A DNA stretch of 64,000 bases from a virus (IMGVR_UViG_3300025707_000004); one strand, 5' to 3'. Positions 14,635 to 46,472 are shown, counted from the stretch's first letter. Notes: generated by a model not told the origin, from the sequence alone. Made by a program: numbers and translations.

Positions 14635-14649
14635 TATTAGCCGCTAATA
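14635..14649. repeat. TATTAG-N3-CTAATA palindrome
   Basis: tattagccgctaata overlapping the stop codon of 14644-15153. Confidence 0.85.
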
Positions 14650-15153
14650 ATCCTGATGCATCTCGTCGGCGCCCTCTTTCTCGGGCTTCGTGACGGTTTT
14701 GGTGGGGAGGACCAGTCGCCAAGGGCCTAGCGGATGCGGATGGTGGGGGTGGTCATCAGCCTCATCGGCGGCGTGGAGGTAGGCGCGGTACGTGGGCGCT
14801 TCGCGGCCCATCACTAGCGGGATACGGGCCATAAGGTCCGAGCCCTCCACCATATGGAACCACACCCCATCAGTCATCTGGACACGTTCGCCCTTGTCAA
14901 GGGCGAGGGTGTACCCCTGGTCACCGTAGGTGTCGAGCACGACACGAGCAAAGACGCGGGGGATACTGGAGTCGGACGCATCAGGGAAGAGCAACATCCG
15001 CGGGGCGGTGTGTGCGGGGTGTATGGAAGGCTGGAGGGAGTCCGGCCCATCGACCTCCACCCAGGCGGTGAAGGCCGTGGGTGCAGGGGTATGCGCGCTG
15101 TCGTAGTAACCCACCGGGGTGTCTATGGGTGTAAGGGCTGGCAGGAGGCTCAT
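14644..15153 (-). CDS. Hypothetical protein with C-terminal HxD tag (EMHQDY)
   Basis: ATGA-coupled start MSLLPAL. Confidence 0.65.
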   Translation of the reverse strand: MSLLPALTPIDTPVGYYDSAHTPAPTAFTAWVEVDGPDSLQPSIHPAHTAPRMLLFPDASDSSIPRVFARVVLDTYGDQGYTLALDKGERVQMTDGVWFHMVEGSDLMARIPLVMGREAPTYRAYLHAADEADDHPHHPHPLGPWRLVLPTKTVTKPEKEGADEMHQDY

Positions 15154-15656
15154 CCCCTTGCCTCGAAGAAGTGGCGGAAGCGCTTCAAGGCTCCGGTCAT
15201 CTGGACCAGGGCGCAAGGGGGTCGGCAGGTCCCCTGCGCACCCCCGCAGGCGACACAGTTCGGTGCGTCGTTCTGCCACACGTCGTTGACGACTGTCTGC
15301 AGGACCGCGTACTCCTTGTAGAAGGGCTCCCGCTCCTGGATGGCGCGGTCGACGGCCCGCCGCGCGCGGTCAACGATTAGGAGGGGGCAGGTCGAGCGGT
15401 GCTGCTGAGTTGGTGATGTTCTGCAGAGTCTGCAGAGCTTGCTACCGCTGTGACCGGCGTAATAGCCCCCCATCTCACGAGTGAGGTTGCGTAGCTCTTT
15501 GTTGAGCCCGTCCCAGCCAATGAGGAGCATCCGGTAGTAGATGGAGCGGGCCTCCTTCTGCGGCTCCTGCTCGGGCGCCGTGCTGACCTGGACCTCGGGT
15601 AGGTCGTCTTCAGGGCCGAGCAGCTCCTCGTAGACGTCTTCTCCGATGTTGCTCAT
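15150..15656 (-). CDS. Hypothetical Zn-finger-like protein
   Basis: CRLC..H...C and CVAC...C...C. Confidence 0.6.
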   Translation of the reverse strand: MSNIGEDVYEELLGPEDDLPEVQVSTAPEQEPQKEARSIYYRMLLIGWDGLNKELRNLTREMGGYYAGHSGSKLCRLCRTSPTQQHRSTCPLLIVDRARRAVDRAIQEREPFYKEYAVLQTVVNDVWQNDAPNCVACGGAQGTCRPPCALVQMTGALKRFRHFFEARG

Positions 15657-16086
15657 GACTTCTCTTCCTCTTGGTCTAGCCGCTCAAGCTCTTCTCGCCA
15701 GAGGCGGTTGCAGGGCTGGCGGAGGCAAATGTATTCAGGGCCCACCCGTTCGGCGGGGACGTGAGAGTCGTGGACGTCCAGGGTCTTGTTGCAGGCACTG
15801 GCACCCTCGTCGGTTCGAGCGTGGATGACGAGAGGCCCCCGCTTGTAGGTGCTTCTGCTGAACTTGGGCGGAGTAGCCATTACGTATTCCTTGCTTCTTT
15901 CCTACTTCAACTTCAACTTCTCCGCGGGTACCAAGGTGCCCTTCCCGCAGTAGCGGCAGATTGGCTTGAAGTACTGGTTTTTCGGGTCAGTGCTGAAGCC
16001 TGTGCGCTGCTCGCGGTGGCATTTGGGGCACCTGCACTTGGTGAATACGCTACCGCGCATTGGTCGAGCCCAACCATCGCGTCATG

Positions 16087-16557
16087 TCACCACTCGTATT
16101 TCGGCAGGTGGTCGTAGACGTTCTCGTCGCGGTCGAACTCGATGAGGCGGGCACCGCATTCGAGGGCCATCTTCCACACGGGGATGAGCCACTCAGGCAA
16201 ATGCTCGCCCAACTCATCCGCCTCCAGTACCTGGACGAACACGAGGTAGCCGTAGCTGCCCAGCTTCCCCGTGCTCTCAATGGTTCGTAGGTCCCCGAAG
16301 TCGGGGTCGTTGCTCGGCATGTGGCCCGTGCTCAGCGAGAGCATCACGCAGGCTGGGCGCATGTCGTCGGCGACGTGCATCAGCTTGATGGCGAGCGCTT
16401 CGACGTCATCGGTCTCAACGTCTCGGGGGATGGGGACATCGAAGACGGGCGCCACGTCGCCGTCTACCTCTAATGGCTCTTCGACGGTGACGTGGTTGAT
16501 GAAGGCGTTTTCGGCGGTGTGGAAGTCGAGCAGCTTGCGGTTCCGGGGGTACTTCAT
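16087..16557 (-). CDS. DUF5983-like phage protein
   Basis: LSLSTGHM...YGY...LIEFDRD...LPKYEW pattern recalled for this family. Confidence 0.55.
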   Translation of the reverse strand: MKYPRNRKLLDFHTAENAFINHVTVEEPLEVDGDVAPVFDVPIPRDVETDDVEALAIKLMHVADDMRPACVMLSLSTGHMPSNDPDFGDLRTIESTGKLGSYGYLVFVQVLEADELGEHLPEWLIPVWKMALECGARLIEFDRDENVYDHLPKYEW

Positions 16558-17082
16558 TGGCCCTCTCCAACACGCACCACCCGGTGCCCGCCATCGCTGT
16601 CGTCACCACCATCGGCGGCGTCTGCGTCAGCCCGAGCGGTCAACCGGTTGACCGCCTTGATGATGGGGTGGGGCACCCTGCCTGGAGGTTCCCGCAGCTC
16701 AGGTACGGGAGCGTCGTACTCAGTGGCGTGGCCGGCGACGTACCCCTCCGGGTCCGTCCAGAAGTCGGCGTCGGCGACGGCGGCTTCCTCTTCGTAGTCG
16801 TAGGGGTTGCAGTCCCCTGTGACGTACCACTCGCCCGTTCGCCCGGTCTTGTTGAAGTAGCTCACAGATCCTCACCCTCCTCCATGACCTCGGCCCTGAT
16901 CGATCCCTTCTCCCAGTAGTCCGTGTCATCGAAGAACTCCCCGCCGTCGGTCTCATCCCACACCCGCTGGGCGAGGTCTTGAAGGGCCTGCGGGTTGTTG
17001 GCGGTGGCGTCGTCGACCTCCACCTCTTTGACGAACTCCACCCTGGTGAATGCGGAGAGCCGGATACGGACGCGCTGACCCA

Positions 17083-17679
17083 TCAGGTCCTCTCTTTCGT
17101 GGCGTCGTTGTCGTCTTCGGAGATCTCGTCACAGCGCCGGATCTCCTGCTCTCGCGCACAGTCCTCCAGCACGTCCCACCCGAGGCTAACGCTGCGGTCT
17201 TGCAGCGCAGACTTGGCGCTCTGGAGGAACGCCTCGGCGTCCTCATCACTGAGATCGTAGACATCCGTGATGTCTTCGACGGTCCAAGAGATAGCAACTA
17301 CCGGACCAGTGGTGACCTCCCCGCCGGACGTGGCGTCGGCGCCGCAGTCGGCGCAGATACGGTCGACCATGCCGTGTTGCGTGAGGGCCATGCTGGCAAC
17401 CTCGGCGACCTCTTTCACCAACTCGGCGAAGTCGGGGTAGGCCACCTCAAGCTCTTCCAGGGTGTCTCCGCTTATCAACGCCTGTCGGACCGCCTCAGCC
17501 GCTTCGACCAGCTTGTCGTCAGCGGTCAGGGTCGGAATGGGGTTAACCTCGATACGGTCGACCATGCCCTCACCCACCCACCGCTCGGCCTCACGCCGAA
17601 GATGCTTTTTCATGTTCGCTTCGTGAGCCGCGTCGGCCTGCTCACCCGCCGCCTGAATGATGATTGTCAGTGCCATTGT
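17083..17679 (-). CDS. Hypothetical acidic protein
   Basis: AGGAGG RBS before MALTIII; part of the coupled operon 15653-18396. Confidence 0.6.
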   Translation of the reverse strand, partial: TMALTIIIQAAGEQADAAHEANMKKHLRREAERWVGEGMVDRIEVNPIPTLTADDKLVEAAEAVRQALISGDTLEELEVAYPDFAELVKEVAEVASMALTQHGMVDRICADCGADATSGGEVTTGPVVAISWTVEDITDVYDLSDEDAEAFLQSAKSALQDRSVSLGWDVLEDCAREQEIRRCDEISEDDNDATKERT

Positions 17680-18407
17680 GATGCACCCTCCTTTGAGTGC
17701 CAGGGGCCAGCGAGCATGAGCGCATGCCAGCATTCGGTTGTTACGTCGGCGAACTCTACGTGGTTGACCGCGCAGTTCTCGTCGTTTGTTTCGTGGATGT
17801 CTCCGCAGCTCTCGCACCACACGTACCCCATGGGGACAGCGCCCGGCACGGGGTTGTCGCAGGGGTTACCCCCGTCCGACAGCACAACGGTAGGTGTGTC
17901 GACAGCGGTCAGCTCGTCGTAAGCGACTTGGTACGAGCCAGGGATGTGGCCGTTCTCGTCGGCCATGGGCCGCACAAGCGTTGGTACGATTACGACCGCC
18001 TCCGCCTCTTCCGCGCTATAGCGGCGTGCAACGAAGCCGGTCTCTACCTTGTCCTGCCAGGTGAATTGAACCCAGCTGTGTAGCTTCGGCTCAGGCATCG
18101 TCGGCCTCCTCGTCTTCCATGCCGAAGAGCGCTAACCAACGCGCTCGACGTTCGGGGTCTTCCATGCTGCACGCGACGGTGTACGCCGCGTCGGGGATGC
18201 TGCTGTTCGCGAACACGTCGGAGAACTCGGTGGGGATTTCCCGGAGGTCGTTTACGAAGCTGACCTCGACGTCCACCCTGTGACCGGGCGCGTCTTCACC
18301 GAGCATGCCGTCGTCGATGCAACGGCGGATGTTCTGCTCGATGGAGAACTCAGTCTGGAGTCCGCCACTGCGGGGGGTGGTGATTGTTACGTTCATTCGT
18401 TTCTCCC

Positions 18408-18422
18408 TATTAGCGGCTAATA
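18408..18422. repeat. TATTAG-N3-CTAATA palindrome
   Basis: tattagcggctaata just after the paralog array. Confidence 0.85.
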
Positions 18423-18425
18423 CGT

Positions 18426-18542
18426 TCAGACGTCCATGTGGTAGTCGGCGGAGAGCAAGACGGCTTCGTAGGGGCTGGTGGTTGCTGGGTACACTTTGCG
18501 GCGGTGGACGACCCGGTCGCCGTTGTTGTATTCGCTGGGCAT
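18426..18542 (-). CDS. 38-aa truncated array paralog with C-terminal tag (DYHMDV)
   Basis: Hand translation MPSEYNNGDRVVHRRKVYPATTSPYEAVLLSADYHMDV; AGGAGG RBS. Confidence 0.75.
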   Translation of the reverse strand: MPSEYNNGDRVVHRRKVYPATTSPYEAVLLSADYHMDV

Positions 18543-18549
18543 GGGCCTC

Positions 18550-18762
18550 CTATACGTCTACGTGGTAATCGAGGTGCAGAAACCCGGGGCGCACTTCAAA
18601 GTCGCCCTCGTTCCACCACGAGATCATTCCTGAGTCCAGATTGACTCGCCAAACGGTCATGCCGACCGCTGCGCTGTAGTGGGCGGAAACCAGCGTGGCT
18701 TCCTGTGGGCGTTTGAACATGTCTTTGCGGTGGGCCCGGTCTCCCGGCTTGGGATTAGACAT
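18550..18762 (-). CDS. SH3/KOW-like array paralog, tag DYHVDV
   Basis: GDRAHRK...WRV...WW...F. Confidence 0.75.
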   Translation of the reverse strand: MSNPKPGDRAHRKDMFKRPQEATLVSAHYSAAVGMTVWRVNLDSGMISWWNEGDFEVRPGFLHLDYHVDV

Positions 18763-18964
18763 CGACGTGGTACTCGTCGGGGCAAACCTCGAAGCGGGAT
18801 TGGTACCACCACGTTTCACGGCCCGTAGGTTCGAGTAACACCAGCCAAGTGACCTCTTGGCCTACTTCACTCCAGCGGGAGTGTGACAGCGTGCCGTATC
18901 GGTAGGTGCTGGGGTCAACGTGCCTGGGTCGGCGGACACGTTGTCCGGTCGTGAAGCTAGACAT
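18755..18964 (-). CDS. SH3/KOW-like array paralog, tag EYHVDV
   Basis: GQRVRR...WLV...WW...F. Confidence 0.75.
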   Translation of the reverse strand: MSSFTTGQRVRRPRHVDPSTYRYGTLSHSRWSEVGQEVTWLVLLEPTGRETWWYQSRFEVCPDEYHVDV

Positions 18965-19211
18965 CGATGTGAAACTCCGGCTCGGCTGGCGGCGGCTCCC
19001 AAGCACGCTTGAAGACGAACTCCCCGTGGTACCACCACTCGTAGGAGTCGGCAGGGATGCCGTCGTTCTGTCCCAGCTTCTGGACACGCCAAGCACCCGG
19101 ATTTGCGCTCTCGCTCTGCCAACCCAGCCGAGCACGGAGCGGAGTGCCGTCGGGGTAGAAGCGTTCGGTGTGTTCGACGATGTCGTTCCTTGCAAATGCG
19201 TCGCGGGGCAT
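18957..19211 (-). CDS. SH3/KOW-like array paralog, tag EFHIDV
   Basis: NDIVEH...WRV...EWW...F. Confidence 0.75.
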   Translation of the reverse strand: MPRDAFARNDIVEHTERFYPDGTPLRARLGWQSESANPGAWRVQKLGQNDGIPADSYEWWYHGEFVFKRAWEPPPAEPEFHIDV

Positions 19212-19222: not shown

Positions 19223-19471
19223 TCAGATGTCCTCGTGAAATTCGGGGCGCTCGCTAAGTGGCGCTTCGGCCAACGTGAACTCCCGGGTAGACCACCACTC
19301 GAAGTAGTCGACGTGGACACCGTCTATGTCGATGCGCTGGATACGCCAAGCAGGAGCGCTGTCGTCCTTGCTGATGAAGCGCAGCAGACCACGAAGGGGC
19401 GTGCCGCTGCCGGTGGAGTAGCAGCGGTAGTTGTGTTTAACGATGTCGCCGCGGGCATATCCGTCAGCCAT
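19223..19471 (-). CDS. SH3/KOW-like array paralog, tag EFHEDI
   Basis: GDIVKH...WRI...EWW...F. Confidence 0.75.
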   Translation of the reverse strand: MADGYARGDIVKHNYRCYSTGSGTPLRGLLRFISKDDSAPAWRIQRIDIDGVHVDYFEWWSTREFTLAEAPLSERPEFHEDI

Positions 19472-19482: not shown

Positions 19483-19706
19483 TCAAATGTCCTCGTGGTA
19501 TTGGGGCGGGGTCGTAACAGCGGCGGAGCTAACGACGGTGAAGGCACTGGAGCACCACCAGTCCTCTTGGTGCCAACTGAGGCCGATGATGCGGACTCTC
19601 CAGTAGGTGGCGTTGCCGGAGTTTTTGTAAAGCAGCTCCCCCTCACGCCGTTGCCACTGTTGTCGTACTGCCGCTCCCTGTGCTCGACGATGTCACCCTT
19701 CTTCAC
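19483..19706 (-). pseudogene. Array paralog split by a 1-nt frameshift in a G5 run, tag QYHEDI
   Basis: MKKGDIVEH...GVRG continues in the -1 frame as ELLYK..YWRV..DWW..F..QYHEDI. One extra G at 19638-19642 restores the frame. Confidence 0.7.
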
Positions 19707-19852: not shown

Positions 19853-20815
19853 TTAGATGCCCAGCGGGTGGGGCACACCGCTGAAGTAGATGGTGATGCT
19901 GTTCGCGCACCGACGCGTCTCCAGCCCGTACTCATCGGTGATGAACTTGGCCAGCGCATCACGGATGCCGGCGCAAGCACCCACCGTCCTCGACGAGAAG
20001 GGAGCCCGCAGCTGCAGCTCCCTCCGCTCGTTGTCCCACGAGATCGTCGAGTACTCGTGGGACAACGAGGTCGAGATGGTCAGCCGGGTATGACCATGCC
20101 GCGCTCCCTCAGCGGCTACCCGGAGGATTCCGGGGAGCGAACTTCGGATTTCGTGGAGGACGCCCTCCGGCGATGCGGCGTGGTCCAAGCTCTCCACCCG
20201 CTCCGCGTTGAGCTGGACCAGTCCAGCCCGGAGGGCCTCGGGACTGAGCGGGGCCTCCACCTCGCCTCTCCTGCGCTGAATGGCGCCCATGAAGGCGCCA
20301 CGCAGCGGGTCGATGGACGCGTGGAACAGGCAGTGGGCCACGTCAGCCCATCCGGTACACCTGGGCGTGGTGAGCACGGCGCGGATGACCCGCTCCGTCC
20401 ACGCCCAGTACTCGTCGCGCCGCTCGTCACTCCACCCCTGCGGCACAGGGTTCATGGATGCCCGGTTGTCCAGGCAGTCAGCGAGCTTGACGAGGGCGGC
20501 ACCACCGGAGAGTTCCGGGGCATGCGTCACGCACAGTTCCTTGCGGAACTCCTTGCTCAGCTCCTTGTCGTCGGTCAGCTCCGCTACCATGCCGGCAACG
20601 TGCTCACCAAACTCGGCCCGGAGCTGCTCCGGGGTGACGTCGGTGTCCTCCACGGTGTCGTGGAGCAGCGCGCCGATGATGGTGGTTTCGTCGGCCCCAG
20701 CCGCCTTGAGGGCAGCCGCCATCCGGAGGGGATGGCAGATGTAGGCTGACCCGTCGCCCTTCCGCTTCTGGAAGCGGTGGGCGTGTGCCGCAAATGCGGC
20801 TGCGATGATGGGCAT
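19853..20815 (-). CDS. Small alarmone hydrolase (RelA/SpoT/Mesh1-type HD domain) with C-terminal extension
   Basis: AH..QKRK...YICHP...ALLHDTVEDT...V.ELTDDK...VKLAD.LDN; AAGGAGG RBS. Confidence 0.9.
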   Translation of the reverse strand: MPIIAAAFAAHAHRFQKRKGDGSAYICHPLRMAAALKAAGADETTIIGALLHDTVEDTDVTPEQLRAEFGEHVAGMVAELTDDKELSKEFRKELCVTHAPELSGGAALVKLADCLDNRASMNPVPQGWSDERRDEYWAWTERVIRAVLTTPRCTGWADVAHCLFHASIDPLRGAFMGAIQRRRGEVEAPLSPEALRAGLVQLNAERVESLDHAASPEGVLHEIRSSLPGILRVAAEGARHGHTRLTISTSLSHEYSTISWDNERRELQLRAPFSSRTVGACAGIRDALAKFITDEYGLETRRCANSITIYFSGVPHPLGI

Positions 20816-22960: not shown

Positions 22961-24421
22961 TTAGGGAGCGGGGTCGTACTCGATGTGAAGCCGGGGTGCG
23001 TGCTTGTGCTCCTTGCCGACCTCACCGTTGGTGGAGACTGCGAGGCGCAAGCCACCAGCCTCCACAGAGCTAATGATGAACGACATGGCGTTGCCCGGCT
23101 TCCACCCGGGGGCGTCCACACGGGCCTGCACCAATGCCGAGATGTCGGCGCTTCGCTGGTCCTCTGGCGGGGCTCGGGTCTGCCAAATCCCAGGCACCCA
23201 CTCGATGGCTTCCGCGGTCTTCACCCTGCCGCTGATGTTGTCGCGGTCTCGACTGAAAACGGCGGAGTTCGGAACGGCTTCACCATGGATAGCCATCTTC
23301 ATCGGCTTGTTGGGCTCACCAGTGCTGAACTGGATATACGCCTTGGCGATCTTGACCCCAGCCGGAATCGGAAGCCGGCGGAAGCGAATCCCGATGTACT
23401 GGTTGAACTGCTTGTCCTGCGTCAGCTCCAAGTCGCTGCTGCCGAGGGACATACGACCACTGCGCTCCTCAGCATCGTCACGACCCGCGGCTACCCGGAT
23501 GTCGAGGACCACGGTGTCGACACGCCACTCCTTGTAGAGCATGAGAGCGAAGCCGTTGGCGTTGCTGTCGTCACAGAGGACGAGGAGGTTACCCATGATG
23601 GCGATGCACTCCAGGTTGCCCCCCTTCGGCGAAGCCCAAGTGCGGAGCGAGTCGAACGTGCCGTTGGTCGACTTGAGGCTCACCTCCTCCAGTGAGTTCC
23701 CGCCGACGTTGTGCCAGACGTAGAGCTTGCCGCTTGAGCGATTGAACTCCAGACCCGATGACTCACGGGTGTTGGTGCCGTACGCACCGATGAAGCTGAC
23801 CACGTCGCTGTCGACACCAAGGTCAAATGCGTAGACCTTGCCCCCGTTCTGGTGAGCAACGAGCATCAAGCCGCCCATGCCGTTGCTCGACTTGGGGAAC
23901 GCCGTGCCGTCAGGCTTCGTGAAGCCGGACTTGGCGAGCCACTCATCAGGGACGAAAGCGATGCCCTCAGGACCAGCTCCGTTGTACGCCGGCACAAACG
24001 GGCGGATGTTCCACTGGTGCAGCAGCTTCACGTCCCCGTATTGGGACGTGTCGTACTTGCGGATGAGGTGCTCCCGCTCCGCCATGATGTAGACGCTGTT
24101 CTCGTTGTAGTCGACCTGGGTGATGCCCTCGCAGTCACCACCAGACTTCCAGTAGGCCCGCGCCTCGTCCTGGTAGTCGACGACATACGAGCCCTCACCG
24201 TCTGGGACCATGGCGACGAATTGGCCGCCATTGTCGGCAACCCATAAGCGCTTGGTGACCGGGTTGAAGTGCGCGCCCGACACGTCGCTACCGAAGCCGT
24301 CGTCGAGTTCGGTGAGGTTGGTAGAGGTCTCCCACGTCTCAGCGGGCCAGGGGTCCCCGCTCGCGGTTCCGACCAAGAGGCCAAAGGTCAGCAGGGTCAT
24401 GATTGCGGTTTTCATCGTCAC
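22961..24421 (-). CDS. Secreted beta-propeller (SdiA-regulated/phytase-like) protein with C-terminal beta-sandwich
   Basis: Signal peptide; repeated SG/EG-I/L blade motifs (DVSGA, DCEGIT, GPEGIA, ESSGLE, NLECIA); C-terminal DDAEE...SSDLEL...GIRF...AYIQF domain. Confidence 0.65.
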   Translation of the reverse strand: MTMKTAIMTLLTFGLLVGTASGDPWPAETWETSTNLTELDDGFGSDVSGAHFNPVTKRLWVADNGGQFVAMVPDGEGSYVVDYQDEARAYWKSGGDCEGITQVDYNENSVYIMAEREHLIRKYDTSQYGDVKLLHQWNIRPFVPAYNGAGPEGIAFVPDEWLAKSGFTKPDGTAFPKSSNGMGGLMLVAHQNGGKVYAFDLGVDSDVVSFIGAYGTNTRESSGLEFNRSSGKLYVWHNVGGNSLEEVSLKSTNGTFDSLRTWASPKGGNLECIAIMGNLLVLCDDSNANGFALMLYKEWRVDTVVLDIRVAAGRDDAEERSGRMSLGSSDLELTQDKQFNQYIGIRFRRLPIPAGVKIAKAYIQFSTGEPNKPMKMAIHGEAVPNSAVFSRDRDNISGRVKTAEAIEWVPGIWQTRAPPEDQRSADISALVQARVDAPGWKPGNAMSFIISSVEAGGLRLAVSTNGEVGKEHKHAPRLHIEYDPAP

Positions 24422-25990: not shown

Positions 25991-26059
25991 CTAGATATCG
26001 ATGTGGTATTCGGCGCACGCTACGGCTCGACGTGCGAATACGAGGTCAGGGTCAGTCAT
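25991..26059 (-). CDS. 22-aa micro-protein ending in the C-terminal tag (EYHIDI)
   Basis: MTDPDLVFARRAVACAEYHIDI; ATGA overlap with the upstream stop; the next gene's RBS follows its stop. Confidence 0.65.
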   Translation of the reverse strand: MTDPDLVFARRAVACAEYHIDI

Positions 26060-26357
26060 CCCGGCATCCCCCCGATGGACCCAGAAGGCCCTCCCCCTCC
26101 ATCCCAGCAGTTACCGCAGTAGCCCCCGCTGATGGCGGGTTGGCCGCATGAGCAGGCAGGGGCGCTGCTGGCTTGAGGGAGGTAGCCGCCGGCAAGGCAC
26201 GTTTCGTACAGGAGGTGCAGACGGCCATCCGACCCTGCCCTGCTCCGCAAGTACACGCCAATCCGCGCTGCCACGATGCCCAAGTCGGGGTCGGAATGAC
26301 CCACGCTCCGCCTGATGGTGCGGAGGGCGGTCAGCATCTCTTCAGGTGTCGGTTTAC

Positions 26358-26834
26358 TCATCGAACCGTCACGACATGCGACGACAGCGCAGCTCGCCAA
26401 TAAGCCACGGTGTCCTCTGGCACGGTGCCGCCAATCTGGTTGTAAGCGAACTTGTAGACGGTGCTCGCCATTTCGTCCATGCCGCACAGAGCGAGGCACC
26501 GAATCACCCTCGTGATTCGGAGATGGTTGTGGTCGTACTCGTTGACCCACTCATGCGAGTTCTCCAGGAAGGAGAGGAAGCGCCCGGTGAGCATGATGAG
26601 GCGAGCCTGCATGAGCGGATTGCTCTTCATCTCGTCGTAGAAGTCATCTGCGGCGGCAGGGCTGGCGGGCACAGCACGGCTGGGCTCGGGAATAGGGAAC
26701 GCCCACTGAATGTGGTTGTGGTTGCGCTCCCACCAATCGTCGCTGTTGGTGAAGTAGATGGGGAGGCCGCGGTCTGCACCGTCGAAGCCGTTGTCTTGCC
26801 AGAAATCGAGTAGGTTTCTGTCGTCGTCAGTCAT
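26358..26834 (-). CDS. Opioid growth factor receptor (OGFr)-like conserved-domain protein
   Basis: E..HN.IQW.FP..E.S and HNHLRITR.IR.L motifs; AAGGAG RBS. Confidence 0.85.
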   Translation of the reverse strand: MTDDDRNLLDFWQDNGFDGADRGLPIYFTNSDDWWERNHNHIQWAFPIPEPSRAVPASPAAADDFYDEMKSNPLMQARLIMLTGRFLSFLENSHEWVNEYDHNHLRITRVIRCLALCGMDEMASTVYKFAYNQIGGTVPEDTVAYWRAALSSHVVTVR

Positions 26835-26854: not shown

Positions 26855-26869
26855 TATTAGCGGCTAATA
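26855..26869. repeat. TATTAG-N3-CTAATA palindrome
   Basis: tattagcggctaata overlapping the stop of 26864-27145. Confidence 0.85.
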
Positions 26870-27145
26870 GTCGACATGCATCTCTTCGGGCTTGGGGCGA
26901 GGCCACGGCTTGGGGCCGGCGTCGATGCGGACGTGGTCGTAGCCGCACTCGCCGCGACAGGTAAGTACCCCGAGGTCGGAGAGCGACACAGTGCCGGCCT
27001 CGCAGAGCGGGCATTCGTCTCCGTGGTCGCAGGCTATGAAGGCGGTGTAGAGGCGTTGAGAGACGGTGGCGTTGTCGGGGCCCCCGATGAAGGGAAACAA
27101 CTCTTCTTCACCGTCGTCGTAGGGGATTCGACCATCGTCGTCCAT
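26864..27145 (-). CDS. Zn-ribbon protein with tag (EMHVDY)
   Basis: CPLC...CRGEC. Confidence 0.65.
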   Translation of the reverse strand: MDDDGRIPYDDGEEELFPFIGGPDNATVSQRLYTAFIACDHGDECPLCEAGTVSLSDLGVLTCRGECGYDHVRIDAGPKPWPRPKPEEMHVDY

Positions 27146-27304
27146 GAGGGAGGCTCCTGGTGTGGCTGTGCGGGAGTTATACCCTGACGGGCTCGTAGGG
27201 CTTATGCCTAAAAGGGGCGCGCGTTTGCGGGGGGCTAAGAAGAAAGGGCGGTGTTCCCACCACCCCTCTCCCTAGGCACTATGTCCCGAGTTAGCAGCGA
27301 TTAG

Positions 27305-27787: not shown

Positions 27788-27827
27788 GTCGAACTCCTTC
27801 GGTTAAGTAGGTTGTCTGTCCATAGTT

Positions 27828-27873
27828 CTTATCCCCAAAACGGCCACGTGTTTTGCATTATTAGCGGCTAATA
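27828..27873 (-). promoter_or_regulatory. Repeated promoter with palindrome abutting the -35 element
   Basis: Promoter 27828-27856 and tattagcggctaata 27859-27873. Confidence 0.8.
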
Positions 27874-28170: not shown

Positions 28171-28395
28171 TTACTCGTCGAAATGCATCTCTTGGTCTGC
28201 GGGCTCTGTGGCCAAGACGACCGGCTCGTACCCGCCTTGTAGCCAACTCTTGATCTTGAGGTCGACGGTGTCCTTCCCCCCGCCACCCGCGGAAATGAGG
28301 GGAAGGACGTCATCCCGTAGCACCTGGGTGCGCTCTCGCACCAGGAACTCGTCCATGAACTTCGCCCATTCGGGGAAGTTGCTGCCGTAAGCCAT
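28171..28395 (-). CDS. Small protein with tag variant (EMHFDE)
   Basis: 74-aa ORF immediately after the 461-aa gene. Confidence 0.6.
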   Translation of the reverse strand: MAYGSNFPEWAKFMDEFLVRERTQVLRDDVLPLISAGGGGKDTVDLKIKSWLQGGYEPVVLATEPADQEMHFDE

Positions 28396-31106: not shown

Positions 31107-31421
31107 TTAGATGTCTACGTGCATTTCGTCGTCTGCACCGGTTGGCGCCTTCGGGATGTGCCCCGCGTGCTGGAACCAGCGGCCGGTGGAGTCCTGGACG
31201 CTCTGAGGGTCCAGGCTGAAGTCCTCCATGACGTAGCCGCCGCACATATTGTCGATTGCTTCGAGGATGTCCGAGGAGCAGTCATCCGGGTAATCGCCGA
31301 GGACCATGTCCAGCTCGTTGAGGTACTCGCTGATTGCGATGGCGCGCTCTTCACGCTCATCGTCCCAGTCACCATCCCTTACGCCCCGGTTGAACAGCTC
31401 CTCAGACGTCATCGCACTCAT
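31107..31421 (-). CDS. Acidic small protein with tag (EMHVDI)
   Basis: 104-aa ORF. Confidence 0.65.
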   Translation of the reverse strand: MSAMTSEELFNRGVRDGDWDDEREERAIAISEYLNELDMVLGDYPDDCSSDILEAIDNMCGGYVMEDFSLDPQSVQDSTGRWFQHAGHIPKAPTGADDEMHVDI

Positions 31422-31555: not shown

Positions 31556-32005
31556 TCAGACATCCGTGTGCTCCTGCGGGAGTGCGGCCTCCACCAGCGC
31601 GTCCGCCTTGCCCTTCAGGTACCAGTACGTGAGCGTGGACTGAATGACGGGATTGGGAGCTTCATTATCCCCGCCCTCGTACGCCCCGCCCACCCCGTAC
31701 AGCACGCTAACGTGCTTGCCGAGGCCGAGGGTGCTCGCCTTGATGTCTGCCCTGACGGCGCTTTGCTCGGGGAGCTGGGGGTGCTCGGCCCGCCACAGCC
31801 GGCAAAAGACGCGCATCATGACTTGGTGCGGCTTGTCCTCGTGCCACTCGACGACGTAGGGCTTGTCCTTGAAGTCCCAGCGGCGCCCGCTCATGTAGTA
31901 AGTGTAGAGGTCTTGGATGTCCTCGTCGGTGAGGTCGTCACCGCATTTGCGCTCGCGAGGATTGCCCTTGTCGAATACCTCGAATGCGTGGTCGGGAAGT
32001 CCCAT
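31556..32005 (-). CDS. Hypothetical protein with tag (QEHTDV)
   Basis: First gene after promoter 32098; AGGAG RBS. Confidence 0.65.
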   Translation of the reverse strand: MGLPDHAFEVFDKGNPRERKCGDDLTDEDIQDLYTYYMSGRRWDFKDKPYVVEWHEDKPHQVMMRVFCRLWRAEHPQLPEQSAVRADIKASTLGLGKHVSVLYGVGGAYEGGDNEAPNPVIQSTLTYWYLKGKADALVEAALPQEHTDV

Positions 32006-37361: not shown

Positions 37362-37459
37362 AGAAGACTCCTTCTGCAGCAATGCTGCGTGGATGAAATG
37401 GGCGTAATTGCCCCTGTTCATAGTTCTTATCCCTAAAAACACCCCGTGTTTTGCAGGGG

Positions 37460-38305: not shown

Positions 38306-40012
38306 CTATAGCGTCCAGAGGTCGAAGTGGTAGTCCGCACAATTACGGATGTCCGGTCGGGAGCCAGGAGCCCCACACCGCCACTGCTTGTTGAAGTTCG
38401 TGATGGCCTCGTCGGCAGCCATCTCGGGCCAGATGCGCCGGTCCAGCTCGCGACCGATGAGGTCACCCAGGTCGCCTCCTTGCAGCCCCAGCTCGATGGG
38501 CGGGTGCAGCAAGCCCCGTTCACCCGCCCCGACCATGCGGTCAGCGAAGTAGACGGGTATCTCGTTCAGCCCCGGGATGGGGATGATTTTCGGCGTGTTC
38601 ATAAGCCGCCCGAATTCTGGGTGGGCAAACTGCTCGGGGAGAGCGCCGATGAGAAGGGCGAAGTCGTCGGAAGGGCCTCGCCCGAACCAGTACTCCACGT
38701 CCGTGTGCCGCCCTGCGGTGGTTTCCACGAGCGCGTGCGCGAGGTAGTCCTGGGCTTGGGTAGCCCGACCGTACCAGCGCTCACACGCCCACATGCCCCG
38801 ACGCAGGTCATCGGCGTCGTTGATGTCGATTTCGAGGCACCACTCCGAGGGGTCGAAGGTCGGCGTCGTGTACTTCATCTCGATAATCTCGTTCCACGAG
38901 TCCCAGCCCCGGTCATGCTCGCAGAGGATTCCGCGTGCATCCGGCCAAGGCCCTCGGTCTCGGACGAGCCCATCGGCGTATCGACGCCGCCCAGCAGGCA
39001 GGTGGACCACGGCGGTATCGGGGTCCATGTCTTCGCCTTCGAGCAGCATCCGTCTCCACAGCGCGGGCGGGACCACCATGTCGGTGGCTTGCGTCCTGTA
39101 GAGGGGCACACGGGGATTGCCCCCGGCGTTCGAGCAGAAGACGTTCCCCGAGCCGGGCAGCTCAGGGTTGTTGAGGATGATGAGCAGGTCGCACGCGAAT
39201 ATCTCGAACTCGCGCCACGCCAAGAGGGCTGCGTTGGGGTCACCCTCGCGGTCGATGCGGTCGCCCTCGTACATGATGCTGTAGAGGAACGACCCCGCTC
39301 GCTGCCCAACGTCCCCAGGCAGGTTGTTGAGGGCCGCGGCGTAAGCCACGTCCTTCGCCTCCTCACACGAGACGGCCTCCTCCATCTCGGCCACAGCAGG
39401 CATGCCGCCATCCTCACCACCCGCGGCGATGTTGATGCCCCCGTCACCACACGCCGCCCCGGGACCGAGGTCGAACGTGTTGATGTCGGCACAACGCTGG
39501 AGCGCGCACGCACCGACGTTACCCACGGGAGCCCCAACACCAGCAGGGCACTGGCCAAGGGGGAACTCCAAGCACGCCTCCGGGTAGAGGATGACCCCGC
39601 CCTCGCCTTCGAGGATGACGTACTCGTTCTCCTCGGCGCACACGGGCAAGATGTTGCCCAGGTCCCCCTCGTCTGGCGCTGCATCCAGCACCGTGCACGA
39701 GAAGCTGTGGGTCAGGATGGGGATGTCCACCAGACCAACTCGGGTGTTCTGCACCCAAGACCGGAACCGCCCTGTAACGGCGGTGCACGAGCCGCGGCAG
39801 TCACCCGCTCGGGTCACCACCTTCCAGCCGTAGCCAGCCACCAAGGGGTCGGCCTCGACCTCGCTGTGCGCGAGGCGGGGGTCGCAGATGTCCCCTTGGT
39901 CACCACGAAACTCCCCCGCTCCAGGGGCGGGCATGCACGCGCCCCCGTTGACGCTGTACTCCAACCCGTTCCCGCAGCAGCCCGCGAGGAAGAGAAGCGT
40001 GAGCAGCCTCAC
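38306..40012 (-). CDS. Cys-rich lipoprotein with C-terminal PD-(D/E)xK (Tox-REase-like) nuclease-like domain
   Basis: Lipobox LAGC; YADG...IIEMKY...QAQDY...VEYWF. Confidence 0.55.
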   Translation of the reverse strand: MRLLTLLFLAGCCGNGLEYSVNGGACMPAPGAGEFRGDQGDICDPRLAHSEVEADPLVAGYGWKVVTRAGDCRGSCTAVTGRFRSWVQNTRVGLVDIPILTHSFSCTVLDAAPDEGDLGNILPVCAEENEYVILEGEGGVILYPEACLEFPLGQCPAGVGAPVGNVGACALQRCADINTFDLGPGAACGDGGINIAAGGEDGGMPAVAEMEEAVSCEEAKDVAYAAALNNLPGDVGQRAGSFLYSIMYEGDRIDREGDPNAALLAWREFEIFACDLLIILNNPELPGSGNVFCSNAGGNPRVPLYRTQATDMVVPPALWRRMLLEGEDMDPDTAVVHLPAGRRRYADGLVRDRGPWPDARGILCEHDRGWDSWNEIIEMKYTTPTFDPSEWCLEIDINDADDLRRGMWACERWYGRATQAQDYLAHALVETTAGRHTDVEYWFGRGPSDDFALLIGALPEQFAHPEFGRLMNTPKIIPIPGLNEIPVYFADRMVGAGERGLLHPPIELGLQGGDLGDLIGRELDRRIWPEMAADEAITNFNKQWRCGAPGSRPDIRNCADYHFDLWTL

Positions 40013-42260: not shown

Positions 42261-42501
42261 AGTTGACTCCTTCTGCAGCTCAGCTGCGTGGATGAAATGG
42301 GCGTAATTGCCCCTATGCATAGTTCTTATCCCCAAAAGCACTACCGCTTTTGCACCCTGGTAGACTCTAGGAATGCGGAAGAAAACAGGGTCGATTACGG
42401 GGCTGGTACTGGGCGCAGGGACACGCCGCGACTTCCTCAAGAAACTGCTCAAGGAAGCCGTCGTGCAGAAGCGGCGGCAAGCACTCGCCAAGAAGCCCCG
42501 G

Positions 42502-42516: not shown

Positions 42517-43134
42517 CCTCAGCCGAAATAGCCGTCCTGGCACTCCTGGCAGAAGCGGGTGATGGCGTACTCCCGCTTGGAGAGTTCGTCTTTGAATTCG
42601 GTCGCGGGGCCACTGCACCGGACGCAGGTCTCTGTGGCCTCGGCCTTGGCGGGGGTGTTGCCCTCGAACGCGGCCTTGGCCGCCTCGGCAGTCACCCGCT
42701 GCATCTCGGGGGTTTGGTTCTTGTTGCTCACTCGCCCTCCTCGTCCACTCGCGTGATGATGTACTCAGCTGAGTAGAATTCCACATCCTCAGTGAAGCGC
42801 GGGTCGGTGTCGTCGAAGTAGCTGTCGTCAGGGTCCCGCCCGATGGGGTGGGTTAGCTCCAGTTCTCCTTCGAGGCGAATCGTCTGGAGGATGACTACCT
42901 TGTAGAGCGCGGTCATCGTCCTGGGTCCGGCCGGCGCCCAGCCGGTTACGTGGAGCACAGGGTCTCCGTTGTCGGTTGGCCATCCGGGCTCGTACTTGAT
43001 GCCCTCCAGCTCCGGCTCGTGCAGCTGCTTCCGGATGTACTCGAAGAAGGCTTTCCCGCCTTGGAGGTTGATGAGGTCCGTGAGACTGAGGGGGATGGTG
43101 CCGTTGACTTCTCGGCGGTCCTTGTGGTCTTCAC

Positions 43135-43719
43135 TCATGTCGACGGGAAGACGCTGAGGGAGTTGTTGAGCCACGCCTTGGCCGCGCGCTCAGCGAGGGC
43201 CTTGGCACCTTCTTTGGTCCCGCTGTACCCATCGCGCTCTGTCGCGCCCGTGACGCTCCAGACCCAGCCAAAGCCGTCGTTGTCATCGAACTCGTCGAGT
43301 TCGACGTTGAGGATGAGGCAGCCAGCGCGGGCTCGCTCGGGTTCGTCGGGGTCGGTGGGTCCGCCGTTGATGGCCGAGATGGCGGCGTTCCAACGCAGCT
43401 CGCTACTGGGGTGGAGCACCTCCTGGAAGGTGTAGGCGACCCAGCTGACCCGCATGTGTTTTTCGTCGATGTCCAGATAGTCTTCCCCGTAGACCACGGC
43501 GTCGAGGTAGTTGGCGGCCGTGATGAATTCGCACTCCTCGGGGTGCTGGTCGTGCCAGACGGCGTAGAGACCATGCTCTGGTTGGAGGTACAGGCTCCCT
43601 GAGCCTGCGCCCCTGGCCTTCCGAGGCGTGCGGCTGTTTCCCGCTTCTTCGGGCGGTGCGGGGGAGATTGAGTCCTTGTGGCGGAGGGCGGAAAAGAAGT
43701 CGAGTTCAGCAAGGGTCAT
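43135..43719 (-). CDS. Hypothetical protein
   Basis: 194-aa ORF coupled to 42728-43138. Confidence 0.6.
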   Translation of the reverse strand: MTLAELDFFSALRHKDSISPAPPEEAGNSRTPRKARGAGSGSLYLQPEHGLYAVWHDQHPEECEFITAANYLDAVVYGEDYLDIDEKHMRVSWVAYTFQEVLHPSSELRWNAAISAINGGPTDPDEPERARAGCLILNVELDEFDDNDGFGWVWSVTGATERDGYSGTKEGAKALAERAAKAWLNNSLSVFPST

Positions 43720-43753
43720 TTTGGGCCTATTCGTCTATGTGGACGTTTTACGT

Positions 43754-43894
43754 TCATACGTCGATGTGCTCACTGCGGGCGAGCTGGATGAGGTCCCAGG
43801 GCTGGAGTGTCACGAGACACTGTTGTCCGTCCATAAAGGATGTGCGGGTGATGTGGTCGGGGTCGGTCCAAGTGCGGAGAGTTGGGTAGGGCAT
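43754..43894 (-). CDS. 46-aa protein (or frameshifted tail of the upstream ORF) ending in tag SEHIDV
   Basis: Hand translation MPYPTLRTWTDPDHITRTSFMDGQQCLVTLQPWDLIQLARSEHIDV. Confidence 0.5.
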   Translation of the reverse strand: MPYPTLRTWTDPDHITRTSFMDGQQCLVTLQPWDLIQLARSEHIDV

Positions 43895-44126
43895 GGAACA
43901 CCAGTGAGTAGTGTGGTGATGAGTACGAGGCTGCCACGGTGGGAGTGGCGCACAATGGCTACGTCGTAGGGGAGCTTACGGCTGAGGCTGTGGTGCCACA
44001 CCAGGGCAGCGTCTACAGCTTCGCCAGGGGAGAGCCCAGGTAGCCTGTAGGCCCACTTTATGCCCTCGGCGGTGTAACTGGATAGCCATTGGCCTGGGAG
44101 AGGCTCAAAGACGCTTGGGTCCATGC

Positions 44127-44417
44127 CTAGCGGTCCGCGTGCATCGCGTCGGGGTCCCTGAGGCGGGCCTCTTCCTCGATGCGGTCCTCGACCACAGCCA
44201 GGAAGTGTTCGTCTTCGCACCGCTGGATGTCGCTCGCGACCTGGGCCAACCACGCGCGGTGGTTCTCCTCAGAACCGCCCACCAGGACCTTCTTGTGGGT
44301 GCCCCCAATCGCGGCGGCCTTCGCGAGTCTTTCCTTCTTTTCGCGGGCGGCTTGCTTGCGTTGCTTGGCCGCAGCGTTCCGTGCCCTTCGAGCCGCGGTC
44401 ACTATCTCGTCAAACAT
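44127..44417 (-). CDS. Small helical protein, tag variant AMHADR
   Basis: Start overlaps the tag of the upstream gene. Confidence 0.6.
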   Translation of the reverse strand: MFDEIVTAARRARNAAAKQRKQAAREKKERLAKAAAIGGTHKKVLVGGSEENHRAWLAQVASDIQRCEDEHFLAVVEDRIEEEARLRDPDAMHADR

Positions 44418-44610
44418 CGACGTGCATTTCCTCTTCTCGTTTCTGCGTGGCTACGATAACGGGCACCCCGTAGTCCCGTGCGCGCTTCTTCGCGGCGAAG
44501 GTTTTCCGTCGTGCTTGGGCCCAGTCCCACGTGTCGTACTGGAACTGGTCCTCTTCGTCGCGGCAGTCGGCACAGGTGCAGCGCGTGCCGTCTGCGTTCC
44601 ACAGGCTCAT
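44410..44610 (-). CDS. Small Cys protein with tag EMHVDV
   Basis: CTCADC; first gene after promoter 44650. Confidence 0.65.
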   Translation of the reverse strand: MSLWNADGTRCTCADCRDEEDQFQYDTWDWAQARRKTFAAKKRARDYGVPVIVATQKREEEMHVDV

Positions 44611-44704
44611 ATGCGGGGCTCCTCCAGTTGGGGTAATAGCTACTTGAAGCTTATGCCCAAAAGCGGCTGACTCTTGCGTCTTTTCGGTATAAGGCGGTGA
44701 GCCG

Positions 44705-44719
44705 TATTAGCGGCTAATA
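44705..44719. repeat. TATTAG-N3-CTAATA palindrome
   Basis: Between a plus-strand GGTATAAG (44686) and the RBS, an operator-like position. Confidence 0.85.
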
Positions 44720-44730
44720 AAGGGAGCAAG

Positions 44731-45180
44731 ATGGCGGAGCAGTTCTGCTACGGTCTGAGCGATTTCGAGGAGTACTTAGAGTCCATCAGCGACGTGCTGG
44801 AGTCGGTCAACGCGGTCACAGGGTTGGTATACATCGTCGAGGAGTACGCACCGTTAGTGGTGTCTGCCGAGTGGGTCGAAAACACCAGCGCGCACTTGGC
44901 GGAGATGTGGAACGAGCACTTCTCAGACGAGTACGGGAGCCTAGATGGTGAGTCGCCCGACAACCCCGCGGGCCAAGGCTCGGTCCAGGAGATGGAGGCC
45001 CTTCTGACGGGGTGGGCGAAGCGTGCCCGCGTTTGGCGGTGTGAGCCTACGGGCAGGAGCTTCACGGTGGAGGCCCAGGAAGACGGCGGCTATGTAATCC
45101 TCTTTACGGTCGGTCCGCCGTATGCCGACGGGAGACAGCCTACGCTAGGCTTGGTAGATGAGGTACATACGGATGTCTAG
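44731..45180 (+). CDS. Acidic protein with tag EVHTDV
   Basis: 149-aa ORF, GGGAG RBS. Confidence 0.65.
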   Translation: MAEQFCYGLSDFEEYLESISDVLESVNAVTGLVYIVEEYAPLVVSAEWVENTSAHLAEMWNEHFSDEYGSLDGESPDNPAGQGSVQEMEALLTGWAKRARVWRCEPTGRSFTVEAQEDGGYVILFTVGPPYADGRQPTLGLVDEVHTDV

Positions 45181-45784
45181 GCCAAAGACGGAGGGTGTAG
45201 GTGCGCAGGGGTAGTGAGAGGAAAAGACTGATGGTCACGCTGCGGTTCGATACCGCGAGTGCCCACGAAGGCGGGGACCAGCTCGTGGCAGAAACGGAGG
45301 CTGGGGTTCTAATCGCGAAGGTACCGCTGGCCCACAAAGGGCGGCATCCAAGGGCAGAGCAAGTGTTCATCGCCGAGCTGGTGGACTCGTTGCATCACGC
45401 AGAGGAGACGGAATGAACCCACTCGCGGAGCTGGACAAGCTCACGAAGAGGCTCGATATGCTGAGGTCGGCCCACGCTAAGGCTGTCTCGATAGGACTGG
45501 TCTTCAGAAAGTTCGTTGTCGAGGCGGATACCGCGTTCTTCTCCTCGTCAAGCGAGGAGTTCCCCGACTACTGGTGCAGCCTCAGTGTCGGCCTGACCGG
45601 AGACGGCGCGGTACAGCTGGACGTGGTGGACGAAGAGGAGTTTGTCCTCTTCGGGGTGGAGTACCCCAACTACGACGACATGGCAGAGGCCAAGACGATA
45701 CTGGATAGCCTCGGCGGGTAACCGAGGTGCCAGCTAAGAATGGGGCCGCGACTCGCGCAGCCCCATTTCTTACGTACACCCCGG

Positions 45785-45994
45785 CTAGACGTCGGTGTGG
45801 TACTCGGGCTCCGCCGGCTCTAGCGTGGGTAGCTTCTTCATGCGGATGGAGCTGATTTCTGTGAAGGGGACTTCGTGGCGGCTGGCCTCTGTCCACTTGG
45901 ACCCGTCAGGGTAAAGGACTTCGCGGGGAACCCTGCAGAGTTTACCGCGCCGGTACTTACGGCTGGGGGTGCCTTTGAATGCAATGTCGCTCAT
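45785..45994 (-). CDS. Small protein with tag EYHTDV
   Basis: ATGA-coupled start MSDIAFK; bidirectional hairpin at 45733-45772 downstream. Confidence 0.65.
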   Translation of the reverse strand: MSDIAFKGTPSRKYRRGKLCRVPREVLYPDGSKWTEASRHEVPFTEISSIRMKKLPTLEPAEPEYHTDV

Positions 45995-46197
45995 ACGTCC
46001 ACATGGTAGTCGAGCGGTGGGCCGGGTGGTGCAGGCACGGGCGCACTCCCGAAGCCTCCGGGGGCTCCGAAGCTCGCCACCTTCGCCACTCTGTCCCCGA
46101 AGAAGAAGTTCCAGGGCACCCCTAGCGACTCGATTACACGGCGCTCCCAGTACCTGTAGTCGATGTCGAGCCCGAGTGCGGTCGGCGGAATGTCCAT
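45991..46197 (-). CDS. Small protein with tag DYHVDV
   Basis: Pro-rich linker before the tag. Confidence 0.65.
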   Translation of the reverse strand: MDIPPTALGLDIDYRYWERRVIESLGVPWNFFFGDRVAKVASFGAPGGFGSAPVPAPPGPPLDYHVDV

Positions 46198-46472
46198 TAC
46201 CGGTCCTGGTGAAAGAGGTGGGCGCTGATGTCGCTGATCGGGATGCGTACCCCGCCACCGGGAAGGTAGCGCGTGCCCATGCTGGTGTCTAAAGTCATCT
46301 CGGGGTTGATTTGTATGTACGCCCCGCCGGGAGAGTCGTCGTCGCGGAGTGTGTAGCTCAGGTCGACCTTCAGGTGGTTGAGTAGGAAGTCGGCGATGTA
46401 AGGCTGTAGACGCCCCACAAAGCCTTCGTCGTTGAAGAGCCGAATGTAGTCTGCATCGGTGAAGTCGGGCAT
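46197..46472 (-). CDS. Small protein with tag variant LFHQDR
   Basis: TAATG coupling to the next gene. Confidence 0.6.
   Translation of the reverse strand: MPDFTDADYIRLFNDEGFVGRLQPYIADFLLNHLKVDLSYTLRDDDSPGGAYIQINPEMTLDTSMGTRYLPGGGVRIPISDISAHLFHQDR

Follow-up and report, generated by a model that had tools for sequence, protein, structure and literature searches.

A peptide tag at the C-termini of many small proteins of an uncultured phage and its possible common reader

Why should so many small and dissimilar proteins of a single phage end in the same few residues? The question is raised by a 64,000-nucleotide stretch of the viral genome IMGVR_UViG_3300025707_000004 (hereafter the window), for which a preliminary description had listed 19 open reading frames (ORFs) closing with a short C-terminal peptide that contains His-x-Asp and is here called the tag. 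The window (63% G+C) is part of a 188,287-bp metagenome scaffold (ENA ERZ23491365, scaffold_20), where it occupies record positions ~27,929-91,928 in reverse orientation. Tags were sought in 84 kb of the 188 kb, that is, in the window and the 10 kb past each of its ends, and the set of 113 genes consists of our own calls, based on codon usage (third-position G+C 0.7-0.9). No nucleotide or protein match to the window was returned by megablast or tblastn among 50,697 deposited phage genomes. Pfam and PHROG families are scarce among 98 window proteins, only HD, MazG, receiver, HicB, RHH, XhlA and ParA-like families being detected, and Pfam assigned no family to any of the tagged window proteins. 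Positions in the tag are counted back from the last residue (0), placing His at -3 and Asp at -1; tagged genes are named by their lower window coordinate and lie on the minus strand unless otherwise stated.

All 19 ORF ends were found at their listed positions, and each closes with His-x-Asp-x-stop, with His at -3 and Asp at -1. The nucleotide pattern CAY-NNN-GAY-NNN-stop occurs 20 times on the two strands of the window: 19 of these are the listed ends, and the twentieth is an in-frame second copy located 27 nt past the stop codon of the 43754 ORF. All 20 are in frame at ORF ends, with none in other reading frames or in intergenic DNA. Among our gene calls, 11 of 113 have His-x-Asp-[Val/Ile] as their C-terminus, compared to 0.02 expected (binomial p ~1e-33), whereas the same tetrapeptide is found at 3 of 16,673 internal positions and the full six-residue motif at none. 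A comparison of C-termini with internal positions had been proposed in the preliminary description, and for the window gene calls it reveals a strong terminal enrichment. The negative control consisted of unrelated IMG/VR loci, 1.73 Mb in total, that had been retrieved through two pattern scans of low specificity (with a 15-bp palindrome and a promoter-like 15-mer, both discussed below). These contain, per 64 kb, 1.0 His-x-Asp-x ORF ends and 0.15 His-x-Asp-[Val/Ile] ends, and none of their ORF ends carries the full motif.

The extent of the phenomenon had been overstated in one respect, as the tag was described as phage-wide. Within the 84 kb examined, tags occur only at window 14.6-46.5 kb, with none in the remaining 32 kb of the window and none in the 10 kb past either end. 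Similarly, the count of at least 19 small proteins holds for the ends, all of which exist, but two of the ORFs are not intact ordinary genes (19483 is frameshifted and 25991 comprises 22 amino acids (aa)). The tagged genes sit in one promoter-defined block of this 188-kb uncultured phage and its relatives, and make up roughly 30% of the genes in the accessory block. The tagged stretch overlaps the block in which a promoter-like repeat is found (20.8-52.6 kb), and the first gene after such a repeat is often a tagged one; the tagged small accessory proteins are probably early products.

Sequences related to the window permitted comparison at three depths of one lineage: identical copies in many samples, a strain variant (A') and a distant lineage (B). 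The consensus of the tag is Pro-[Asp/Glu]-[Tyr/Met/Phe, or Glu]-His-x-Asp-[Val/Ile]-COOH, in which His and Asp are invariant, being unchanged throughout 48 tag sites from three lineages. At these sites the last residue is Val (27) or Ile (8), less often Tyr or Leu (5 together) or one of Arg, Glu, Ser and Gly (8 together), while Val, Thr, Ile and Glu predominate at position -2. The acidic residue followed by Tyr, Phe or Met that had been assigned to positions -5 and -4 is correct for the larger subclass of tags; a second subclass carries Glu at -4.

The codons employed at the 19 ends reveal on which molecule selection acts. His is encoded by CAC 14 times and by CAT 5 times, and Asp by GAC 12 times and by GAT 7 times, in roughly genomic proportions, the excess of GAT arising because downstream ATGs are embedded in GAT-GTN. 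The last codon is of nine kinds (GTC, GTA, GTT, ATC, ATT, TAT, GAG, CGC and CGG), and the stop codons (TAG 8, TGA 7, TAA 4) reproduce the mix of the whole gene set, in agreement with the free codon variation, including all three stops, that had been claimed. At position -4, similar residues are specified by dissimilar codons (Tyr by TAC, Met by ATG and Phe by TTT), with Val or Ile at position 0. Furthermore, the start codon that follows is placed at widely differing distances from the tag, between -8 nt (an overlap) and about +380 nt, at least two tagged genes (28171 and 45785) terminate their transcription unit, and tagged genes are present on both strands. The tag is thus selected as a peptide: the freedom of wobble positions and stops, the unlike codons for like residues and the variable start offset bear out the earlier view that selection does not act on a DNA repeat.

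These same data make it barely credible that the tag is a nucleic-acid element (a binding site, a recombination joint or part of a terminator) that is translated by coincidence. Short palindromes of the GTCGAC type in some copies, and the merging of two copies with the 15-bp palindrome, would suit such an element. It would not, however, be expected to display codon periodicity, in which the third position varies and the other two are fixed, or to use unlike codons for similar amino acids, or to be found in frame at an ORF end in 20 of 20 occurrences; moreover, 15 nt with ~9 fixed bases are too degenerate for a recombination site. A recombination-joint or "boundary sequence" model was dropped, as the common DNA is too short and too degenerate.

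The palindrome in question, TATTAG-NNN-CTAATA, is present in at least 13 copies in the window (for example at 14635, 18408, 26855, 27859, 42502, 44705, 46698 and 51116) and is kept in lineage B (locus L220, at 2360, 3250, 6841, 11810 and 12534), often just past a stop codon or beside the promoter-like repeat. Over the two lineages it overlaps a Tyr-ending tag three times, at window 14644 and 26864 and at L220 3250. In the two window cases the last codon and the stop codon of the tag constitute the first half of the palindrome, which begins TAT-TAG, and these tags end in Tyr because of this overlap. A DNA constraint is accommodated here by a tolerated residue, Tyr.

A second explanation operating in cis holds that the last six nascent residues, or their codons, tune termination or downstream re-initiation. 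Close coupling to the following gene is frequent among tagged genes, the next ATG being located inside the Asp-Val codons (GAT-GTN) in five cases, in a GTA-TGA overlap in two and in a TAATG overlap in one. We nonetheless regard such an effect as very improbable: the offset to the next start is as variable as described above, at least two tagged genes (28171 and 45785) close their unit, the three stop codons are used in genome-typical proportions, and most coupled gene pairs in the window are devoid of the tag.

The behavior of the tag over evolutionary distance is consistent with selection on the peptide. Variant A', retrieved from JGI and ENA metagenomes, encodes a 568-aa protein 96% identical to that of the window. 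In 11 orthologue pairs between the window and A', the six tag codons have undergone 7 synonymous and 10 conservative changes, the latter being Glu/Gln/Asp, Phe/Tyr and Ile/Val swaps, with no change at His or Asp. All six genes of the A' counterpart of a tandem array of tagged genes (window 18.4-19.7 kb) carry the tag, on linkers that are unrelated in sequence and length. The gene content differs somewhat, as A' has an additional 136-aa tagged gene on the opposite strand and lacks the plus-strand gene for a very acidic 149-aa tagged protein (window 44731-45180, +), which is present and tagged in lineage B (45% identity). In A', two array paralogues have also become fused into a 146-aa protein (locus L209 4057-4497, +), and the tag in the middle of the fusion is without the acidic residue at -5 and the final Val. 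This buried tag has degenerated.

Lineage B (61% G+C), which stems from other samples and whose contigs include ERZ23491369 scaffold_1630, was found through a 45%-identical homologue of a 295-aa protein of A', which likewise ends in the tag. Orthologue identities between lineage B and the window are 37-67% overall, and the two share the palindrome and the core of the promoter-like repeat. In 14.4 kb of lineage B, 13 of 34 called genes are tagged; five tagged window genes have orthologues there (37-54% identity) that keep the tag, and several other tagged genes are without a window counterpart. One of its tagged proteins, of 241 aa, contains an AEP-like primase domain (E = 6.5e-14). Loss of the tag from orthologues, one of the outcomes that the preliminary description had set against its proposal, was looked for in both relatives, and the orthologues retain the tag. 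Hence, the observation is real, and it is stronger than initially presented because the tag outlasts deep divergence.

Beyond these relatives the tag was not encountered. A profile of the array family, compared to 1.84 billion representative proteins, retrieved the tag in this lineage only. The DNA pattern for Pro-Glu-Tyr-His-Val-Asp-Val-stop had no occurrence in IMG/VR and, in JGI metagenomes, matched this lineage and one chance sequence, while the 15-bp palindrome and the promoter-like 15-mer, when used to scan IMG/VR, gave single chance matches only. In the literature, no paper was found that contains the tag strings or describes such a shared C-terminal motif or degron in phages.

What kind of protein carries the tag? 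Proline accounts for 17.9% of the ten residues preceding it (positions -7 to -16), compared to 4.7% in untagged genes (p = 7e-9), so that the Pro/acidic linker noted previously is apparent as a proline enrichment upstream of the tag. Outside the array, the bodies are indeed unrelated, since no similarity was detected by sensitive blastp after removal of the tags. The six tandem genes at 18.4-19.7 kb are paralogues, with 45785 a distant relative. For an array protein, AlphaFold2 (15 sequences) predicts a five-strand SH3-like barrel (residues 11-69) followed by a lower-confidence coil that includes the tag; Foldseek with this model yielded weak, generic SH3, PWWP and Tudor matches only. The 96-aa protein of 44127 is predicted, with modest confidence, as an all-helical hairpin with a disordered end. 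The tag is therefore attached to different predicted folds, an all-beta barrel and an all-helical hairpin, and in both models the tail is a coil of low predicted local distance difference test (pLDDT) score. Linker and tail are thus predicted to be disordered, placing the tag at a free C-terminus on a flexible linker. Shortened bodies also retain it, as illustrated by the truncated 18426 and the deleted 43754. The tag is portable between bodies and has the anatomy of a C-terminal short linear motif.

A tail of this kind might act autonomously, with no common reader, for example as a metal site formed by Glu, His, Asp and the terminal carboxylate and kept by descent or repeated transfer because it would serve the particular chemistry of each carrier. 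The invariant or near-invariant Glu, His and Asp are classical metal ligands, positions -5, -3 and -1 lie on the same side of an extended chain, and the last position is permissive, accepting Arg, Glu, Ser and Tyr. However, the second subclass has its Glu at -4, on the opposite face of the chain, a site working together with the body would not be expected to hang on a long, flexible linker rich in proline, and the tag is kept on bodies of only 22-46 aa. An autonomous tail is, in our opinion, improbable.

A portable peptide under strong purifying selection, carried by different folds at the free end of a flexible C-terminal linker, bears the signature of a motif read in trans. We accordingly estimate the probability that a single common partner reads the tag at roughly 0.6. 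Under this proposal, each small accessory protein presents its tag, a portable linear motif, at the very end of a flexible linker rich in proline, and one common partner, either a phage or a host protein, would grip this exposed tail. Many unlike proteins would thereby be handled as one group, the outcome being docking, unfolding and degradation, or modification. The tail would probably bind by adding a strand to its partner, which would recognize the free end as well as the side chains of His and Asp. A polar face of Glu, His and Asp (-5, -3, -1) alternates with a beta-branched or hydrophobic face (-4, -2, 0), which suggests binding as an added strand, and a hydrophobic pocket seems to matter less than His, Asp and the chain end, given the stable variants that end in Arg, Glu or Ser.

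Certain observations weigh against a common reader. No PDZ, TPR, clamp or protease family was detected in the 98 window proteins or in ten flanking proteins. Six of the 48 sites end in Arg, Glu or Ser, and these non-hydrophobic variants persist from strain to strain, which a reader with a classical hydrophobic pocket would not fully explain. The array genes and 45785 form one paralogous family, so that independent acquisitions of the tag number fewer than 19. Finally, the DNA pattern of one common tag variant was found in this lineage alone. The address-tag reading is nevertheless the best available and may be considered half shown: the tag is established, and its reader is proposed.

If one reader exists, the most specific form that it could take is a degradation machine, the tag being a C-terminal degron by which early or accessory proteins are handed to a phage or host unfoldase or protease for scheduled removal. 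This special case of the one-reader proposal would agree with the anatomy of known C-degrons, which present an exposed tail and a free end, and the position of many tagged genes directly after a promoter-like repeat would fit briefly needed proteins. A possible unfoldase is also encoded nearby, in the form of a Cdc48/VAT-like AAA+ ATPase gene (E = 6e-52 to VAT) ~6 kb left of the window, close to ubiquitin-like (Ubl), E2-like, JAB and ThiF genes. Conversely, no described degron resembles the motif, the AAA+ and Ubl genes are located beyond the tagged block and display no tag-related feature, and the 84 kb examined revealed no protease partner. A degron seems to us unlikely, if well conceivable.

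The preliminary description had also raised the possibility of a connection to a ubiquitin-like system, and E1, E2 and JAB candidates do occur on the same element. A ThiF gene (E = 7e-18), a weak Prok-JAB match (E = 0.002, below the Pfam cut-off) and an E2-like candidate are found just left of the window, and a Ubl candidate (window 1470-1892) ends in Gly-Gly-Cys. No tag lies closer than 12 kb to the ThiF and JAB genes, and the tags themselves, ending in Val, Ile, Tyr or Arg, do not possess the Gly-Gly or small residue of a Ubl-type C-terminus. The ATPase is a 535-aa protein with a single AAA domain (L217 17677-19284, ~5.8-7.4 kb left of window position 1 and ~3.5 kb past the ThiF/JAB/Ubl genes) for which the D2 domain of archaeal VAT and of eukaryotic p97/Cdc48 was the best match (E = 6e-52). 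Its gene is located downstream of those for the Ubl candidate, the E2-like, JAB-like and ThiF proteins, and is followed by RecA-like, DUF2997 and radical-SAM genes. This neighboring Cdc48-like ATPase makes the conjectural link between the tag and Ubl a little more concrete. That the tag could be the client-selection signal of a phage Ubl/E2-like/JAB/E1 and Cdc48/VAT-like pathway, which would conjugate, unfold or remove its clients at a set time, is quite improbable.

Comparison with well-described C-terminal tails helps to define what is unusual here. In phage T4, gp43, gp33 and gp55 dock on the gp45 clamp by their C-terminal tails, and the acidic tails of T7 gp2.5 and gp4 bind gp5. The resemblance lies in unlike phage proteins sharing a short, extreme C-terminal peptide read by one hub (such a hub being proposed in the present case) and in the tagged AEP-like primase-type protein of lineage B, which is the only tagged protein with a replication-type domain. 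In T4 and T7, however, three or four replication or transcription proteins carry hydrophobic or acidic-aromatic motifs, whereas here ~30% of the genes of a block are concerned, mostly tiny, of no known family and with invariant His and Asp. Neither a clamp nor a polymerase was seen, no clamp family being detected among the 98 window proteins, and no tag fits the clamp-binding consensus (Gln-x-x-[Leu/Ile/Met]-x-x-[Phe/Tyr][Phe/Tyr] or Gln-Leu-[Ser/Asp]-Leu-Phe). The tail of SSB (of the Asp-Asp-Asp-Ile-Pro-Phe type) is similarly acidic, with a hydrophobic end, an important free carboxylate and a long flexible Pro/Gly-rich linker. In SSB, however, one protein addresses many readers, while here many proteins would presumably address one, and the sequences are unrelated, with no His in SSB tails. 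An acidic run ending in an aromatic residue, as in SSB or T7 gp2.5, is absent from the tags, in which an acidic residue is common at -5/-6 and the end is Val or Ile.

PDZ ligands are divided into class I ([Ser/Thr]-x-hydrophobic) and class II (hydrophobic-x-hydrophobic), and most tags, by their three final residues (Val/Ile/Thr-Asp-Val/Ile), would be compatible with one or the other. Strand addition would explain the beta-branched preference at -2 and 0, but the invariant positions of the tag, -3 and -1, are those read weakly by PDZ domains, and some tags end in Arg, Glu or Ser. C-degrons such as ssrA (for ClpXP/ClpAP) or those of SulA and others (for Lon/HslUV) are also short exposed C-terminal peptides on unrelated proteins, and the known ones suffice to address proteins to one machine; they display no sequence likeness to the tag. 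The tags end in Asp-Val or Asp-Ile with His at -3, and do not match the described C-degron ends (Leu-Ala-Ala type, non-polar tail). Encapsulin cargo-loading peptides, read by an HK97-fold shell, follow a flexible linker at the C-terminus of unrelated cargo proteins, yet their Gly-Ser-Leu-x-Ile-Gly-Ser-Leu-like consensus is unrelated to, and absent from, the tags, and the tagged genes are situated among promoter-proximal small genes and not in a virion block. Two further signals were rejected: the type VII secretion signal Tyr-x-x-x-Asp/Glu has the wrong spacing, and the HbYX proteasome-docking motif requires a penultimate Tyr that is missing.

To our knowledge, only a few proteins carry the peptide in each of the known addressing tails (T4/T7 docking, SSB and degrons). 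The present phage lineage retains one peptide through 40-60% divergence, gene truncation and gene replacement. Should a single reader exist, its discovery would place dozens of uncharacterized proteins in a common pathway in one stroke and would yield a compact, portable six-residue tag.

Considered individually, the tagged genes form a varied collection. That with the lowest coordinate, 14644 (14644-15153), encodes an acidic protein of ~156-169 aa, its start being uncertain, whose Tyr-ending tag overlaps the 15-bp palindrome. The array includes 18426 (18426-18542), a truncated 38-aa paralogue in which the N-terminal part of the domain is joined straight to the tag, and a 70-aa member of the SH3-like barrel family (18550-18762). 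The 69-aa paralogue 18755 (18755-18964) starts at ATG 18964 and not with the longer ORF, and the ATG is placed within the Asp-Val codons of the preceding tag. It is accompanied by an 84-aa paralogue (18957-19211), in which AlphaFold2 places the five-strand barrel at 11-69 and the coil tail at 70-84, and by an 82-aa paralogue (19223-19471), whose orthologues in relatives are tagged, with linkers varying in sequence and length. The sixth array gene, 19483 (19483-19705), is frameshifted with the tag still at its end: the N-terminus is read from GTG 19705 in another frame, the shift being near a G-run, and the intact orthologue in a relative comprises 74 aa. Upstream of the array there is a gene for an HD-domain phosphohydrolase of 320 aa (window 19853-20815, -); its A' counterpart (L209 669-1220), likewise upstream of the tagged array, encodes 183 aa and is followed by three extra genes.

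Among the remaining tagged genes, the 22-aa mini-ORF 25991 (25991-26059) shares an ATGA overlap with an upstream gene for a 101-aa Cys-/Gly-rich protein (26056-26361). The gene 26864 (26864-27145), the first after a promoter-like repeat, encodes an acidic, Cys-rich protein of 93 aa with a Tyr-ending tag that overlaps the palindrome. At 28171 (28171-28395), a 74-aa gene with a final Glu is the last of its unit and directly follows a conserved 461-aa gene, an arrangement shared with lineage B; a profile of this neighbor found no match among PDB sequences. A strongly acidic protein of 104 aa is encoded at 31107-31421, and a 149-aa protein, again the first after a promoter-like repeat, at 31556-32005, with a tagged orthologue (54% identity) in lineage B. 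The 46-aa ORF 43754 (43754-43894) is an in-frame deletion derivative of the 295/308-aa tagged protein of the relatives, consisting of the first 37 residues of the A' 295-aa protein fused in frame to its last nine; the second, in-frame tag-like copy mentioned above (His-Ile-Asp-Glu-stop, 43727-43741) is located behind two stop codons. Next in map order are 44127 (44127-44417), which has a final Arg on its 96-aa protein with predicted helical hairpin and disordered tail, and 44410 (44410-44610), the first gene of its unit, encoding a Cys-containing protein of 66 aa whose lineage B orthologue (41%) is tagged. Next to the 44127 gene is an 87-aa gene (window 43864-44124, -) that was missed by the gene caller; its ATG is 2 nt after the 44127 stop, and 55% identity is kept in lineage B. 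The final group comprises 45785 (45785-45994), a distantly array-like protein of 69 aa and the last gene of a convergent unit, 45991 (45991-46197), a 68-aa protein with a poly-Pro linker, and 46197 (46197-46472), a 91-aa protein with a final Arg, whose lineage B orthologue (37%) keeps His and Asp and ends in Ser.

Two further proteins bear what appear to be remnants of the tag. The 568-aa protein (window 38306-40012, -) ends in a tag-like hexapeptide (38306-38335) followed by Trp-Thr-Leu, and may represent a former tag that was extended when its stop codon was lost. A single change would turn the Trp codon, TGG, into a stop, and the ending is kept in the 96%-identical A' protein; no relatives of this protein were found in IMG/VR, and ESM Atlas gave nothing usable. 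In lineage B, a 143-aa M16 (insulinase-type) peptidase fragment with the His-x-x-Glu-His motif (L222 18869-19300, +) loses its coding bias over the last 30 codons, where another frame ends in a perfect tag, identically in two samples. It looks like a formerly tagged gene after a frameshift.

The promoter-like repeat of the block is a 42-nt minus-strand sequence present in 14 copies at window 20859-52623 (for example 27816-27857, 37414-37455 and 42313-42354), with three shorter variant copies at 27200, 34463 and 44649. Its core directly abuts the ATG of the following gene, and leaderless or very short-leader transcripts from the repeat are suggested by the sequence. The core is present in lineage B and absent from the 10 kb past each window end.

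The comparison with lineage B highlighted two more genes. A 70-aa protein with a Cys-x2-Cys ... Cys-x2-Cys zinc-ribbon pattern (window 42519-42731, -) is 86% identical between the two lineages, while its neighbors display 40-60% identity; no other protein seen is nearly as constrained, and it constitutes a candidate for a central role. The other, a 486-aa protein of no known family (window 22961-24421, -), is 67-68% identical to its lineage B counterpart and, having a hydrophobic, signal-peptide-like stretch at its N-terminus, looks to be exported.

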